A DNA stretch of 64,000 nt, from the NCBI GenBank assembly GCA_049517415.1, contig JBEKSC010000004.1, forward strand, positions 64,001 through 128,000. Reading direction: 5' to 3'. The notes under the pieces were generated by a model, which was given only the letters and a program-made list of their open reading frames with translations, had not been told where the DNA came from and ran no database searches. The DNA comes from Candidatus Bathyarchaeia archaeon. GTDB taxonomy: Archaea > Thermoproteota > Bathyarchaeia > 40CM-2-53-6. Of the stretch, positions 16,221 to 41,902 are shown one piece after another (the stretch's first letter is position 1; each line of letters starts with the position of its first letter). The translations under genes and the position numbers were made by a program.

Positions 16221-18139
16221 CAGTCTATCGCCTCTTGAGCCACGAAGGAGTAATTGTAGATCGCGCCATCTTCCGCCTTCTTAGGTTTAGGCACGGACGA
16301 TACGTAGGCGTAGAAACTCTCGCCTGTTGGTAGCATGAAGAAATGCTTCGTGTTGTTTGCTAAGCCAAGAATCATTGCAAGCTCGCCGGCCAAGTCCGTC
16401 GTCCAACCGGTGATCGTTAATTTTCGTCCCTTACCACCCTGGTAGACCTCATTAGGCAACCCGTCGCTCGCCGGCAGGTTCGTCATATTCACGAGCTCAT
16501 CTAACTGAACGGTGAGAACGTGGGAGAACGACGTTCCGTCCACGCTAAGTTGTCCCTGCATCGTGTAGGCGAGTTCAACCGCTAAACCGATCTCGGGAAC
16601 GATTGGCACTGGCCACGGTACAAGGATATATTCTGTGAACGTTCCACTATCCGTAGACTTCAATGAGGCAAGGACGGATTGAGTTATTTCCGTACCTTGA
16701 GTTGATTCTCCAGTCGTTATCAGAGGGCCAGGTGTAAGCTTCTCCGTACCTGTGCCTGTTTCATTGATTCCGGGGCCTCCAGAAACGCTGGATCCGTGCG
16801 CTCCAGAACCTGTTTCAGTGATGGTAAATGATGCTGTTAGGCCCCAGCCTTCAACACCTAACCCGGAGTCGGCAACGGTGAAGGTTACGCTGAGAGCTGG
16901 CAGGTCGGTGCCGGAGCCTGTTTCATTAATCGCTGGGCCTCCAACGGTGCTAAGTAATTCAGTCCCAGCTACAGACTCGAACACGTCAACCTCCGTGTAG
17001 ACGGCGACCGTGAACACTTCACTAAAGACGCCTTCCTCTAACACAACTGGCGAGTAGTAGGGTAGAACGCCGGTGGTCCTGATGTCCGTTTCCGTGTAAG
17101 TGCCAACCTCAGTCACAGTCAAAATGTAGGTGGGGAAATCGTTTTCCGATCCGATGCCGCTTTCAGCCGCAATCGGCGTGTTGACGGGAGTAAGCGCTTC
17201 GGTACCGGTTCCACTCTCAGCAGGCGCTAGAACCGGTTGCAGAGACACCGTCAAATCAGTGCCTGTACCAGCCTCAGATGTGGAGATGAAATTTATCGCT
17301 TTGAATGTGGCGATGACCGCCACTCGATTGGCTTGGGCTCCTGAGTCGGTGTATGTGGTACTTTGTGTTCCGGTTGAAGTCACAATCTTATACATGTAAG
17401 CGCTGGTGGCAACATTAGACCCACCTGTACCGTCAAGCAACGTGTAACCGTTGCTTGGGCTTGATATTGAGGTCGCTCCTCCGTTCCAAGTTCCGGCGCT
17501 GACTACCACTAATTCATTGGCGAACGTTGTTGCGCCACTTGTTGAAATCGTTACGGGCGACGTGACATTCGCTACGGTCCCGTTTTGGTCTACTGGACTT
17601 ACTGTCGTTATGCCTGACCATTCGCAAACGTTGACTACTGCCAAACTGGCTGGATTGCCGCTTAGAGTCACGGTTATTGACTTAGAGGTCCCGCTACCAA
17701 TTAGCCCCCACCACAGTTCGCATTGTTCCCCAAAATTGGAGATCGAATTAACGTAAGTCCAAGTTACACCGGTTTGAGTTATGCCGGTGACAGCGAGATT
17801 CGTGCCACTGTTACCGCTGTTATTCGCGATAGCCAATATGAGTAAGTTACCGTTCGTAGGTGTACTGCCAAGTAAATTGGTGAATACAAGCGGGCTACTG
17901 GTCCCTGTGCCTCGATATGGACCTTGAACGAGAACGATGTTTGCTGCTGCGCCTCGAAGAAAAATTAGTCCCAGAATAGCGTCGCGCAGAAATTTCTCGT
18001 ATGCTTTCTCGTTCCAAGATGTAACGGGGTAGAGGATGGTTTGCTCGTACCCGACAGCGAGGGCTAGAATAGCGAGAGTTTGGACGAGATGCCTACGGCT
18101 AGTACCTCCATAGCATCTACTCTCCGACAAGGTTACCAC
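16220..18139 (-). CDS. Virion tail tip/fibre protein with E-x-G-x-G-x-E repeats
   Basis: 'GNLLILAI' beta domain, repeated 'E(S/T)G(T/S)GT(D/E)' units, position in the tail module; start uncertain. Confidence 0.7.
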   Translation of the reverse strand: MVTLSESRCYGGTSRRHLVQTLAILALAVGYEQTILYPVTSWNEKAYEKFLRDAILGLIFLRGAAANIVLVQGPYRGTGTSSPLVFTNLLGSTPTNGNLLILAIANNSGNSGTNLAVTGITQTGVTWTYVNSISNFGEQCELWWGLIGSGTSKSITVTLSGNPASLAVVNVCEWSGITTVSPVDQNGTVANVTSPVTISTSGATTFANELVVVSAGTWNGGATSISSPSNGYTLLDGTGGSNVATSAYMYKIVTSTGTQSTTYTDSGAQANRVAVIATFKAINFISTSEAGTGTDLTVSLQPVLAPAESGTGTEALTPVNTPIAAESGIGSENDFPTYILTVTEVGTYTETDIRTTGVLPYYSPVVLEEGVFSEVFTVAVYTEVDVFESVAGTELLSTVGGPAINETGSGTDLPALSVTFTVADSGLGVEGWGLTASFTITETGSGAHGSSVSGGPGINETGTGTEKLTPGPLITTGESTQGTEITQSVLASLKSTDSGTFTEYILVPWPVPIVPEIGLAVELAYTMQGQLSVDGTSFSHVLTVQLDELVNMTNLPASDGLPNEVYQGGKGRKLTITGWTTDLAGELAMILGLANNTKHFFMLPTGESFYAYVSSVPKPKKAEDGAIYNYSFVAQEAID

Positions 18140-18194
18140 GGCTTGAAATCGTGAGGGTGCTGAGCTGAAAGAAACTCAGCGAAGGAAAGAAAGC

Positions 18195-18826
18195 TTAGGC
18201 TAACGTGATCTGCACAGTAGCGATCCAGGAAGCTGCGGCCTTCAACTTATGTATTGAAGGTTTCCGCTAACCTTAGTGCCCATCGCTTGCTGCGCACGGT
18301 CCAGCATCGTTCCGCCACCGGCAGCCGCGTTGAAGATACCGATTTCATTCCACGCATAGTCGGCGACGGCGCTGGCAAAGGTTGCCTGCCAAGTCGCCAG
18401 CTGCGAAGATCCGAAAGTCGGGTATCCTCCATTCATGGCTGCGTATGCTTTGTTCGTGCTGGCTTGAAGTGCGACCTGTGTTGCTACTGCCGCGCTTGTG
18501 CTATCACCCACACCGATGTACGCGTTGACATTGTTGAATAGAGTTGCACCCGTCCCGGCTACTAGAGTCCAAAGTATGTTGATTCCAGCGTTCAGAAGGC
18601 AGTTGCCGCGGAATCGTTTGATGGCCAGTAATGTGTCGAACTGTCGCATGATCTCGTCTAGCCCTACGCCGTCTATGGCTGCGCGAGCCACACGGTCCTT
18701 GGGGTCCCTGAATTTGTGGATCGTGAACTGCGAATAGTGCTGGGCGTAGTCGTGTGCGCCGTATCGTTGGGCGACGCGGATGGCGGCTCTTGCAATAGCC
18801 CGATCTACTAGGTTCTGGCCTGTCAA
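18195..18826 (-). CDS. Minor tail protein, spliced (join 18826-18262, 18232-18195), 200 aa
   Basis: 'YIGVGD', 'ATF...A.YAWNEIGIFNAA.GG.ML.R' tail-protein pattern; intron removal gives C-terminus GTKVSGTSWIATVQITLA-stop. Confidence 0.8.
18233..18261 (-). other. 29-nt BHB intron in mRNA
   Basis: GCGG AA|A CCUUCAA-loop-UUGAAGG CCGC AG|C; removal restores the frame. Confidence 0.85.
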
Positions 18827-19008
18827 GTTCCCCCACCCTCCACATAGCGAGCGAGTTCTGCGATCACTGCGTTAGCGCTCATCATTAGGGCAGCAGAAAC
18901 AGGGCCCAGTTTCAGTGTGCCGTCTTGACTTGTCAGTATCAAGTTGCCGTTGACGTCCGACTGGAGAGTCCAATCGGCGTTCTGGACTGCGAAATTAAAA
19001 TAGCTCAT
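18823..19008 (-). CDS. Small viral hypothetical protein
   Basis: GGAGG RBS, stop overlaps the next start. Confidence 0.65.
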   Translation of the reverse strand: MSYFNFAVQNADWTLQSDVNGNLILTSQDGTLKLGPVSAALMMSANAVIAELARYVEGGGT

Positions 19009-19084
19009 AGAAATTTTTCCTCCACTTCCCTATCTACTTGTAAGGCGCTGCTGTTAGGAGGCGCCATCATTCAGTAACGAATGA

Positions 19085-21172
19085 TTATGCTGCCAGGGTG
19101 ATTCCGGCGCTGAGGTCGCTTAGCATTCGGCTTGAGGTTTCGTCAAGCTCCCACAGTTGAGGCATACGCCGGTTCAGGTCGATTGTGGCAATCGTCGGGT
19201 CACTTAGATCCCGCTGAATGCGAACCACGGTGTATAGGCCAGCTAACCCGAGGTCGGGAATGTTGACGGTAATCGAATCCTCAGGCCCGAAAGTGTCTGG
19301 AGGATTCGTGTCTCTCACAGTTATTTGGGCGATGAGTTCGGTGTTTTCGGAATCCGCGAGCATAGCCTGACAGGCTATGGCTAGGGTGGTTGCGTCGGTG
19401 ACGGTTTTCTGGAATGCCACCTGTTCAATTAAGCCGTATTTGTTGATGCTATCGCTGTCACTTTGAATGCTGACTATACCGTTTCCAACCAGGTACATTC
19501 GGTTGCCCATCGTGGAGAAATCTAGTTCACTCGTTGAGTCACCCACCGTATCGCCTTCATTGAAGGCAACGTTCGATGTGCCGCCTCCGAACTGCGAGGC
19601 GAAGTCAAGGGTCAAGTTCGGGTTGACTCGGTACGTCCAACCAATGAGGCCGCAAACCTGCTGGATCGCAGCGCGAAGCGTAACATCAGTGAAAAGTACG
19701 CTTGGTAACGTGATGCCCGTAGTGCCTAGCTGTCCCACCATTATGCCGCATTGGTAATTGGTTAGTAGGCTGTTGATGATGAACTCTGGGCTTGCCGCAA
19801 GAAACTCCGCTTCCTGAATTATTCGGGTGTCTAAGAGTTTGGAGGCGTCAGAACCTGAAAGAGTAATCTTGTACGAGCTGCCTATAGTTCGCTTAATATC
19901 CTCTAGGAGTCCAGCGTACTCTAAGACACCGTACCGATAGACCCGAACGATTCCCCGCGGCGTAAGCGTTGGATAATAACGCGGCAGGTCGAACGTGAAG
20001 GTTTCGATCTTCTGCTGATAGTTCTGCCCGTAATGACTTGTGCCACCGGTTCCACCCACATAGGAATACGGGCAGCCCTCAACGTATAGTTGGAAAGGCT
20101 GCGTTTCATCCGGTCCCTCAGCATCGTAGAATACGTGAACGTTGACGAAGCCGGTTGCAGCGCCCACGGTAGCGTCGCCCGTCCAAGTTGCTTGAACCAC
20201 AGCGAGGCCCGGGGTGGTCGAGGTGAGGGATACGACCGCTAACCCAGCGGCGCTTGTGGTCGCACTTGCCGCGCTGAGTGTTCCGAGGGAGGTTGAGAAG
20301 TTAATTGTTTTACTAGGATACGGTAACTTGGTAGCTAAATTGATCAGCGTAGCCGTGATAACTGCAGTTGTCGGCTGGGCTTTGGATGGGGCGTTCTTCT
20401 GGTAAATCTGAAAATTATCCACGGTGAGACTCAACGTTTGAAGCGGTGTCCAATTCCAAACGTCGCCGCCACACATTGTTTGAGGCTGCGTCTGCTCAAC
20501 TAAAGTTGAACCATCGGCGGCGTAGACCATCGCGTATATTTGCGCGGGCAAAGCAGCCCAAACACTCGCAAGACTGATGACGACTGATGTGGCGTTACCA
20601 GCACAGGTGGCAGACCCGACTAAGCCACCGCCGGGTCCAGCCGTGTAGAGTGAAACTTTCTGACCGCCAGCTAACCCAGTTATAGTTACATTGTTAGACG
20701 AGTAGATCAGTAGGTCCTCGACAGCGATCTCTACGCTTTGGCCAGAAGTATCGGGGCTAAGGGCGAAAGCGTAACCGATCTGAATTTGTTGCGTACCACC
20801 CGGTAGAGTACCCTGTATGCCTGTCCAAGCTGCTTCACCAACGGTACCGAAACTGGTGCTTCCCACTTTAAGTGCGGCAACGTTCGACCTACCTGCAGCT
20901 GGCGGAATTGGCGTCTTGTAATTCAGCCGGAAAACTGCGCCGGTTCCGAGGTTGAAGGACTGATAGAAGTAAGCGTAGGCTTCGAAGCACGCGTAGAAAA
21001 GAGCCCACGCGTTGCCGTTGCTGAACGCCGTAGTCTCAAAGAAACCTGGGACGGTGCATGTTCCCAGACTATAATTATCGTTGGGCGTATCCCAAATGGT
21101 GGTTTTCCAATTACCGAGCGAACTTAAATCGCTACTGTAAATGATGCCCGAGGACCGCTGTGTGAGCGTCAA
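19085..21172 (-). CDS. Tail tip/baseplate hub protein with an Ig-like (Big-1) domain
   Basis: Follows the tape measure gene; 'TINFSTSLGTL...TT...G.A.V.LTS..PG' Ig-like segment; hub-like C-terminal half. Confidence 0.7.
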   Translation of the reverse strand: MTLTQRSSGIIYSSDLSSLGNWKTTIWDTPNDNYSLGTCTVPGFFETTAFSNGNAWALFYACFEAYAYFYQSFNLGTGAVFRLNYKTPIPPAAGRSNVAALKVGSTSFGTVGEAAWTGIQGTLPGGTQQIQIGYAFALSPDTSGQSVEIAVEDLLIYSSNNVTITGLAGGQKVSLYTAGPGGGLVGSATCAGNATSVVISLASVWAALPAQIYAMVYAADGSTLVEQTQPQTMCGGDVWNWTPLQTLSLTVDNFQIYQKNAPSKAQPTTAVITATLINLATKLPYPSKTINFSTSLGTLSAASATTSAAGLAVVSLTSTTPGLAVVQATWTGDATVGAATGFVNVHVFYDAEGPDETQPFQLYVEGCPYSYVGGTGGTSHYGQNYQQKIETFTFDLPRYYPTLTPRGIVRVYRYGVLEYAGLLEDIKRTIGSSYKITLSGSDASKLLDTRIIQEAEFLAASPEFIINSLLTNYQCGIMVGQLGTTGITLPSVLFTDVTLRAAIQQVCGLIGWTYRVNPNLTLDFASQFGGGTSNVAFNEGDTVGDSTSELDFSTMGNRMYLVGNGIVSIQSDSDSINKYGLIEQVAFQKTVTDATTLAIACQAMLADSENTELIAQITVRDTNPPDTFGPEDSITVNIPDLGLAGLYTVVRIQRDLSDPTIATIDLNRRMPQLWELDETSSRMLSDLSAGITLAA

Positions 21173-40452: not shown

Positions 40453-41902
40453 TCAACCAAACGATCGTGAGTACGGTTTGAAACCAGGGACCGTTGGGCC
40501 TCTTGTTGCGAATACGGCCAGGGCGACGGCCCAGGTGCGGTCGTCATGGGTACCGTCTGGGTGGCTGTACTGAATCTTGCCTGCCTTCGTGAGTTGGAAC
40601 CGTTCAATGTTCAGTTCGTTGGCTACATCGAGTTGGTAGGCGATTAGGAGCCGTTTCTGTTGCATCATCATCTTGAGGAAGTTCATGATGTCTTGCTTGG
40701 ATGACTCCGAGAGCATTATGCCCCCGACGTGGGGTACTGATTTCTTCGCTTCTTCTACGACGCTCTCTCCAACGCCGGTCTGGTCCATGAGAATCTTGTG
40801 GATGGTTTGCAGTTTCTGGTTGAGGACTTTGAGGAAGCTGATGACGCCTGTCTCGCCTGTGTAGTCTGTTCCGAGCGGGAAGATCTTCAGGCCCACTAGG
40901 CGGAAGATGTCACCGTCCTTCCTTATGACTGCCACGACACTGTAGTCGACTTTCTTCCCGAGGTCGACGCCGACCCAGTAGTCAGCGCGGGAGGTCTGGG
41001 GGGAGGTCTGTTGACCAGAAGCTGTGGAGTTCGCCGCCAAATTCCTTAATCTCCATTTCCGGATCCGTACAGCCAGTGATTAGCGAAGTAGGGAGCCAGC
41101 AATCGTCGTCTTCGCTCCACTCTGCTTCCATCTCACGGCGCCAACGCCACGGGTCGCTGGCGAACTGTTTCTTGATCTTCGCAAGGATCCCTTTCTTCAG
41201 GGGTCCGTTTGGTTCCAGGGCTTGTTCCCAGTTGACATGGTGACGGCTGTAATCATCGAACTCAGGGTCGTTGCAAATTTTATAGAATATGTGATTGCGG
41301 GACCAGGGCGTCGAGTTAGCGATGAAGAAACCGTTCGTTGTCCCAAGTGTGAAAAGAATAGCGTCGTACAGGTCGACGTCGTCACGGACGAAGTTGAACT
41401 CTGTCGCCAGGATTCCATTCAATGTTGGCCCGCGTATGGTGTCGGGGTTGCATGGGTAGGCTTCGATGATTGAGCCGTTGACTAGGGAGACCTTCGTCTT
41501 CAGCGGTTTCCTTCCGACTAGGATTTCCCGGTAGGGGACATCCTTGGGAAGGCTCTGTTGGATGAATGAGTTGATCTTGCGAATTACCAGCTTGCTTTGC
41601 CGAAAGCTGGGACCCACAACGGCCAGCTGCACTCCATCGTTGGCGACGGCGTACCAGAAGAGCTTGCTGCAAGCTGCGTAGTCTTTCCCCGACTGCCTGG
41701 ACCACAGCTGGGCGATGAATTGCGCCTTGTCTTCGAGGAACTCGACCTGGTATTTCGTGGGTTCGAATCCCAGGGCCTCCTTGCAGAATGCTACCGGGCC
41801 CTTCGCAGCGATCCGCTGTAACCGTTGAAACGCCCCGGTGACTTCGACAACACCTCTGTGGCGTTCCTCAACTTTCTTTTCGAGTTTTCGCCGCCAAGCC
41901 AT
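40453..41902 (-). CDS. terL: Terminase large subunit, split between ATPase (41902-40982) and nuclease (41040-40453) frames
   Basis: 'SRQSGKD' Walker A, 'IRG', 'STP', 'GVDLG', 'DQTGVG', 'HDD...A.ALA'. Confidence 0.9.

Follow-up and report, generated by a model that had tools for sequence, protein, structure and literature searches.

A putative 29-nt relaxed BHB intron in the pre-mRNA of a tail-fibre-like provirus gene from Bathyarchaeia

The minus-strand segment 18233-18261 of the window (the whole stretch of DNA analysed here, 64,000 nt; G000:C4:64001-128000, part of a 2.65-Mb archaeal genome of the Bathyarchaeia) is most likely a 29-nt relaxed archaeal BHB intron in the pre-mRNA of a tail-fibre-like provirus gene. 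The virus probably needs the tRNA-splicing machinery of its host to complete this protein. We infer cleavage and ligation in vivo from the motif and its register, the restored family ending, the presence or absence of the insert among relatives and the enzymes encoded by the host.

In the proposed pathway, the transcript would fold into a hairpin and the host two-subunit EndA alpha/beta would cut after the second base of each bulge, i.e. after 18262 and after 18233. RtcB would join the exons and would probably also circularise the intron. From the spliced mRNA, a protein of 200 residues would be made, with its last beta strand (TSWIATVQITLA) supplied by exon 2, whereas the unspliced mRNA would give a 194-residue product ending in NLQYIS.

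The interrupted gene and its provirus

Tailed-virus genes lie on the minus strand of the window from ~16 to 42 kb and include those for a large terminase, a portal, a major head protein, a tape measure and a prophage-tail-like protein. The interrupted gene, on the same strand, is situated two genes downstream of the tape measure gene, is preceded by a 61-codon ORF and comprises 200 codons when the 29-nt insert is removed. Exon 1 (18262..18826) begins with a TTG start at 18826, which overlaps the stop of the upstream 61-codon ORF, and carries codons 1-188 and the first base of codon 189, as indicated by the ORF translation and by homologues that align over residues 1-188. Exon 2 (18195..18232) supplies the last 2 bases of codon 189, 11 codons (ending in TSWIATVQITLA) and the stop TAA at 18195-18197. 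The candidate mini-intron between them (18233..18261, minus strand) is defined by its sequence, by a register test, by its rank among trial deletions and by its absence from the relative P0004.

The DNA of the locus shows 0 differences over 1201 bases among contigs of 4/4 public runs, and it is likewise identical in three metagenome contigs, though all of these may represent the same organism. Given this identity, a one-off assembly error is excluded. Among the public runs listed for 17900-19100, none is recorded as RNA, and the run contigs, all of DNA, contain neither a variant nor a joined form of the locus. Elsewhere in the provirus, the large terminase gene (40453-41902, minus strand) is split into two overlapping ORFs, the ATPase part at 40982..41902 and the nuclease part at 40453..41040. 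Near 40985-41010 the frame changes by +1 where six C in a row stand within the direct repeat CAGACCTCCC; 3803 stop-free in-frame joins were tested there and none gave a convincing BHB. This break could reflect a real frameshift, provirus decay or a homopolymer error; since the terminase is split by a +1 break without a BHB, the provirus is possibly decaying.

No Pfam family was matched by the interrupted gene, which does match PHROG 23653 (function not known). The AlphaFold2 model of the intron-less relative P0004 is confident (mean pLDDT 89.9). Its best PDB match is the Haloferax tailed virus 1 tail chain 9h4p_BD (E = 2e-5), and its 47 matches in BFVD at E <=1e-3 are uncharacterised tailed-virus proteins, haloarchaeal ones included, and tail-fibre and tail-collar-fibre proteins. 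Since the gene lies two genes past the tape measure and the model resembles tail and tail-fibre proteins, the label "minor tail gene", proposed in an earlier note made from the sequence, is a fair one.

In the P0004 model, exon 2 corresponds to the last beta strand (residues 189-199, pLDDT ~95), in agreement with the earlier expectation that the spliced form ends in a terminal beta strand. The unspliced 194-aa form is still modelled with confidence (mean pLDDT 88.2), with NLQYI as a short terminal strand; its five models spread over 76-88, versus 88-90 for the full-length form, and its partner strands are shorter. Structure prediction of both forms, suggested as a check in the same note, therefore did not clearly discriminate between them, both being confident and the 194-aa models only more widely spread.

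Structure and register of the insert

On the minus strand, the region reads GGC ACT AAG GTT AGC GGA AAC CTT CAA TAC ATA AGT TGA AGG CCG CAG CTT CCT GG. The parsing given in the earlier note was exact, A GCGG AA^A CCTTCAA TACATAAG TTGAAGG CCGC AG^C T (predicted cuts marked ^), and the 29 bases between the cuts are 18233-18261. The 5' strand of the central helix, GCGG (18264..18267), lies within exon 1 and its 3' strand, CCGC (18235..18238), within the putative intron; sequence, fold and register test all support the four G-C pairs that had been claimed. The intron hairpin (18239..18260) is made of the stem CCTTCAA (18254-18260), the 8-nt loop TACATAAG (18246-18253) and the stem TTGAAGG (18239-18245). 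To its 7 Watson-Crick pairs, as counted before, RNAfold adds one U-G pair, and in the register test the inner stem is 8, with 4/4 pairs in the central helix and cuts after the second bulge base.

The 5' bulge AAA (18261..18263; predicted cut between 18262 and 18261) lies between two helices and is unpaired in the minimum-energy fold. The 3' bulge AGC (18232..18234; predicted cut between 18233 and 18232) is in register. Beyond it, however, the outer helix consists of one A-U pair, as weak as first described, and the minimum-energy fold pairs the bulge bases with upstream GGUU, which would place the 3' cut site inside a helix. Since the outer helix has only one base pair, the motif is of the relaxed type, a helix-bulge-helix with an open 3' side, and not a strict or canonical hBHBh'. 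According to PMC2738675, cleavage of a BHB falls between bulge bases 2 and 3, and hetero-oligomeric EndA accepts relaxed BHBs on cbf5 pre-mRNA.

In RNAfold, the 51-nt RNA reaches -17.2 kcal/mol (z = -2.79), a stability matched by 1 of 200 shuffles. The bare BHB motif gave 71 matches in the window versus 54 +/- 8 in 20 shuffles (inner stem >=7, spans up to 120); since the window is about as rich as its shuffles, with no clear enrichment, the frequency of the bare motif was dropped as an argument. A BHB in precisely the register set by homology is rare, with 82 of 2,685,900 position-and-length pairs in the window (inner stem >=7), and the null rate per position and length, over these 2.69 million trials, ranges from 4.8e-4 (inner stem >=4) to 3e-5 (>=7). 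The element is single-copy in the genome in a search allowing up to 7 substitutions, therefore it belongs to no repeat family, and no target duplication flanks it.

The insert is frameshifting, as had been proposed, since its 29 nt correspond to 3n+2, and it carries an in-frame stop, TGA at 18242-18244, which falls in the 3' half of the intron stem. Both predicted endings follow from translation of the sequence: the unspliced ORF (18242..18826, minus strand) encodes 194 residues ending in GTKVSGNLQYIS before the stop, and deletion of 18233-18261 gives 200 residues ending in GTKVSGTSWIATVQITLA.

Comparison with homologues

The gene family is large, with 183 proteins at E <=1e-3 in one search and 1108 representatives in another. 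In 149 of the 156 loci with a GTK motif, GTK is followed by 14-15 residues of the type xSGxTWxLxLxITLS and then a stop; the same distance of 14-15 residues after GTK is seen in 202/269 stored proteins. P0004 (86% identical, 200 aa) is encoded by one uninterrupted ORF, without insert, and its ending GTKASGTSWISTVQITLA is the same as the spliced one. With the insert missing from P0004 and from 149/156 loci, intron-less alleles of this gene do exist.

A family HMM was built from 53 full-length homologues, P0004 being left out. In this comparison, proposed in the earlier note, the spliced form scored 260.3 bits (HMM 4-196) and the unspliced form 242.8 bits (4-186), a gain of 17.5 bits upon splicing. 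We then considered 903 trial deletions (43 offsets x 21 lengths of 3n+2), among which the BHB deletion ranked first by HMM, and length 29 alone gave top scores. The comparison with homologues suggested in that note favours splicing: the spliced-type strand ends 149/156 loci, and the 29-nt deletion is the best of those tried. Since homology fixes the offset of the deletion only to a few bases, the exact cut was taken from the BHB rule. Removal of the segment at these cuts gives the family ending.

Other interrupted copies

Several relatives carry inserts of their own. In L088, a Bathyarchaeia MAG, a 28-nt insert lies two bases further on than that of the window and is arranged as GGGG AG^A, hairpin, CCCT AT^A (central helix GGGG/CCCT); its removal would restore the ending GE^TWTLSLKVTFS (in full VSGETWTLSLKVTFS, then stop). 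A different 28-nt insert, four bases further on than that of the window, is present in L072, L103 and L238 (Bathyarchaeia), which are identical in the region shown and comprise, among them, one Bathyarchaeia MAG and one genome of the class sample. Its central helix is GCAG/CTGT and its cuts are AC^A and AT^A, with GQTWVLTVSITWS as the restored ending (in full TSGQTWVLTVSITWS, then stop).

L166, an 87% relative on a metagenome contig, has a 32-nt insert (876-907) ~150 bases upstream, at a place equivalent to window ~18415, where the window copy has none. It reads GGGC TA^T CCTGTAC... GTGCAGG GCCT TG^T (central helix GGGC/GCCT, inner stem 10) and its fold has z = -3.28. Its removal, at the site GGY^PTFG, restores the frame and the sequence GGYPTFGSSQ, MNGGYPTFGSSQ; P0005, as produced by the gene caller, terminates within the insert. 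The same contig breaks off within the 29-nt intron, of which only the initial 9 bases (ACCTTCAAT) are present.

In all carriers, every pair of the central helix can form (4/4) and the predicted cuts come after the second bulge base, in line with the cbf5 rule stated in PMC2738675. These additional inserts in exact BHB register are the strongest evidence for the splicing reading. For L088 and L072, folding stability does not exceed that of shuffles (z = 0.06 and -0.23). UAC and AAGG occur at the same offsets in the inserts of the window and L088, whose stems differ; the two may be diverged copies with compensatory changes.

Conservation of the inserts and alternative explanations

Two insertion sites can be compared among the closest relatives, site A (GGY/PTFG) and site B, that of the window insert. 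The window copy has no insert at site A and 29 nt at site B, while P0004 has none at either. L166 combines 32 nt at site A with the 29-nt type at site B (first 9 bases only on the contig), and L003 combines 698 nt at site A with 29 nt at site B; L167 has the insert type of L003 at site A (the contig ends inside), its site B being off the contig. Among 80 species-genome loci, inserts occur in 2/15 archaeal-titled and 0/65 others, where L097 has a 1-base frameshift only. A class sample of 401 genomes contains the gene in 24 of them, at 29 places, of which 23 were classified and 2/23 are interrupted (the window and L238). Inserts were seen in archaeal or unassigned copies only (metagenome and IMG/VR viral contigs), and none in bacterial copies. 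The 29-nt intron would be one of a small set of inserts gained and lost in this gene family, both around this codon and at another site.

In a comparison of the window with L003, exon identity is 77-79% (312/403 and 128/162) whereas the intron is conserved at 28/29 positions, the sole change falling within the loop; exon 2 starts with 28 identical bases. Such a conserved intron fits selection on structure or recent co-conversion. It is less easily reconciled with the first alternative, that the hairpin is an inactivating insertion at the DNA level in a decaying provirus, never removed from RNA, so that a truncated protein or none is made. We regard this as quite improbable, even though the large terminase is split by the +1 break at the C6 run and direct repeat without a BHB, and the truncated form is tolerated by AlphaFold2. 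Indeed, all four kinds of carriers have an intact exon 2 that matches the family consensus and lies in the right frame, and four different inserts stand in exact BHB register, which is not expected of random insertions. The single-copy state of the element and the lack of flanking target duplication also argue against an insertion of this kind.

Translational recoding of an intact mRNA is less probable still, whether by a hairpin-stimulated -1 frameshift near GGA AAC or by a T4 gene 60-type bypass of the 29 bases. In each of the four inserts the target frame is free of stops, but by our estimate four frames open over ~10 codons would arise by chance ~15% of the time, and a frameshift would add ~10 residues found in no homologue. 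Its direction would also be inconsistent, -1 for the 29- and 32-nt inserts and +1 for the two 28-nt inserts, with no common slippery site. C GGA AAC does not have the form X XXY YYZ of a slippery heptamer, and the hairpin follows 1 nt later; a programmed -1 frameshift, with its heptamer 5-9 nt upstream of a structure and its collinear product, was thus rejected. As for bypassing, a stable hairpin holding a stop codon after a GGA codon reportedly resembles T4 gene 60, but no matching landing codon (GGA) is present where reading must resume, and the next GGA would lead to SLLCRSR and a stop, unlike the family ending. The matching take-off and landing codons of a gene 60-type bypass are therefore missing. 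Finally, that the insert is itself a ribozyme, such as a self-splicing intron of group I or II, is hardly credible, since 29 bases are too few for a group I or II core (the P3-P9 catalytic core of group I takes ~200 nt or more) and the window has no Rfam match at gathering score, despite the group-I-like 698-nt insert that the relatives L003/L167 carry at the other site.

Short endings among homologues

Returning to the BHB intron, endings resembling NLQYIS among homologues had been named beforehand as an observation that would count against it. Such tails do exist, namely GNPQYII in P0020, GKIHYII in P0036, GKASYIV in P0038 and GEIPYVV in L088, but that of L088 is the read-through of its 28-nt BHB insert, and the conserved ending is intact downstream of this insert in another frame. 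Since the L088 DNA shows read-through, we consider these tails as a sign of further intron carriers and not as a refutation, P0020, P0036 and P0038 being known from protein alone. When these three proteins were used as queries against viral contigs, the best matches were 71% and 66% identical, or there were none; no C-terminal insert was found in the 67 new loci obtained in this way, and a degenerate pattern run over all 234 loci returned the known carriers only.

Five proteins (carriers, 53-61% identity) share a 9-residue tail after GTK. The read-through tails follow the pattern x-S/I-G-x-x-x-Y-[IV]-[ISV]-stop (P0020, P0036, P0038; L088:1588-1626), and the UAC codon of the tail stays in place even where stem and loop borders differ. 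This constant position could reflect an RNA or a protein constraint. Since the carriers share an equal-length x-x-x-Y-[IV]-[ISV]-stop tail, modelled as a short replacement strand, there is a hint that the unspliced product is perhaps under selection, and the common Y-[IV]-[ISV] would leave room for a functional short isoform. A bolder proposal, which we think unlikely, is that the intron is a working part of viral gene expression, where EndA activity would set the ratio of the 194-aa isoform to the 200-aa protein and a mobile family of BHB mini-introns at this codon would tie virion assembly or host range to tRNA splicing.

Splicing enzymes and predicted tRNA introns of the host

The host genome encodes two PF01974 EndA paralogues of 190 and 187 aa (ORFs L001:1213-1785 and L002:1204-1767), both over the Pfam cut-off, which fit a two-subunit splicing endonuclease with putative subunit roles; the abstract of PMC5829648 lists EndA types. 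The catalytic EndA is 82-88% identical to Bathyarchaeia proteins named tRNA-intron lyase by NCBI, and RtcB is also encoded (G000:C5:94022-95332; match of 573 bits). Hence, what a BHB intron would require of its host, a splicing endonuclease predicted to cut relaxed motifs and an RNA ligase, appears to be encoded in this genome.

The tRNA genes of the host were used as a control. With intron search, aragorn called 25 of the 30 host tRNA genes intron-bearing, and a strict BHB was found near the predicted place (+/-8 nt; length +/-4 nt) in 3 of the 21 aragorn introns <=130 nt. Some of the called introns are implausibly long, 1194-1365 nt, including one within the window (C4:117730-119008). The control is weak because the aragorn intron calls are probably unreliable here. 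The same BHB test recognises the 15- and 18-nt tRNA-Ser introns at canonical position in this genome.

Relation to known systems

A BHB intron in cbf5 pre-mRNA was reportedly described by Watanabe in 2002. Yokobori 2009 (PMC2738675) places the cbf5 pre-mRNA BHB intron in Desulfurococcales and Sulfolobales. The present candidate has in common with it a short intron in a protein gene, a relaxed BHB, a cut between the 2nd and 3rd bulge bases (hetero-oligomeric EndA) and gain or loss among relatives, and some cbf5 introns shift the frame too (PMC2738675). Unlike cbf5, the present gene is a viral structural gene and no cellular housekeeping gene, its host belongs to the Bathyarchaeia, outside the Crenarchaeota in the narrow sense, and its family has several insertion points within 5 bases and a second site. 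Moreover, cbf5 splicing was shown by cDNA, whereas here it is deduced from sequence alone.

Another group is formed by archaeal tRNA introns, those at non-canonical positions among them, and by rRNA introns with LAGLIDADG homing endonucleases, e.g. I-DmoI and I-PorI. The candidate resembles archaeal tRNA and rRNA BHB introns in motif geometry and in the presumed enzymes, EndA and RtcB, and it has the mini-size of tRNA introns. It differs from them in that the substrate is an mRNA, the reading frame depends on the cut, and the outer helix is not supplied by a tRNA or rRNA scaffold. Phage genes with short or mobile interruptions that are removed or skipped include T4 td (group I intron) and T4 gene 60 (bypassing); the mechanism there is a ribozyme or a ribosome hop, and the 29-nt insert is without their defining features.

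For crenarchaeal rudivirus genomes, PMC2738675 discusses 12-bp putative "introns" (indels), whose length, a multiple of 3, leaves the frame intact and which "may not be spliced out". They are likewise short inserts in archaeal virus genes with a proposed relation to archaeal splicing (PMC2738675), but the insert described here breaks the frame, holds a stop and has an explicit BHB. The unconventional splicing of HAC1/XBP1 mRNA in eukaryotes, which PMC4090602 mentions, also combines a small frame-shifting intron near the 3' part of the coding region, an endonuclease and a tRNA ligase, and an altered C-terminus, the equivalent steps being proposed for the present gene. There, IRE1 cuts at paired stem-loops in a stress-regulated switch, whereas here EndA would act at a BHB and regulation is not implied.

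In the literature search, mRNA BHB introns turned up for cbf5 only (PMC2738675), and none for an archaeal virus gene; the passages on introns in archaeal-virus surveys mention none of this kind. In print, protein-coding BHB introns are documented essentially for one cellular gene; here, a structural protein of a tailed Bathyarchaeia virus appears to need the host tRNA-splicing enzymes for its completion. With at least four separate inserts in one gene family, a single cut rule and presence that differs among close relatives, the gain, loss and sliding of archaeal mRNA introns would become testable. The inserts could also serve as a marker of an archaeal host for viral contigs, and they are a warning for gene callers, as such genes come out truncated (P0001, P0003, P0005, P0020, P0036 and P0038 were all called short).

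Other variation in the gene family

The 698-nt insert of L003 (L003:2404-3101; IMG/VR contig, 81% relative) is located one base from the L166 site, and the same insert type begins at ~965 in L167 (metagenome contig, 81% relative), whose contig ends inside it. It contains a 195-aa LAGLIDADG_3 ORF in frame with exon 1. No correct junction was found for the L003 insert among 65 in-frame BHB candidates with 4/4 central-helix pairs. The last base of exon 1 is a U that lies in a GAGGAU/GUCCUC hairpin and forms a U-G pair at the junction, and the insert itself terminates in G. The Rfam group I model matches the UGCGGG...AAUCCGCAGG segment of the insert weakly and below threshold (12.6 bits, E = 1.8-2.7). 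This insert is possibly a group I intron of an archaeal virus, housed in one gene together with the BHB intron.

Three further kinds of variation were observed. In L179 (IMG/VR contig), in-frame TGA occurs at two conserved Trp positions (1594-1596 and 1774-1776; INELW and ATW), which suggests that this virus reads TGA as Trp. L097 (2483-2500), from a deltaproteobacterial MAG, has a single additional base that changes the frame ahead of the last strand; no hairpin accompanies it, and it looks like a plain frameshift or a sequencing error. Lastly, bacterial-type homologues show an in-frame insertion of ~180 nt in L194:1777-1956 and two tandem domain copies in L228:1507-2256.
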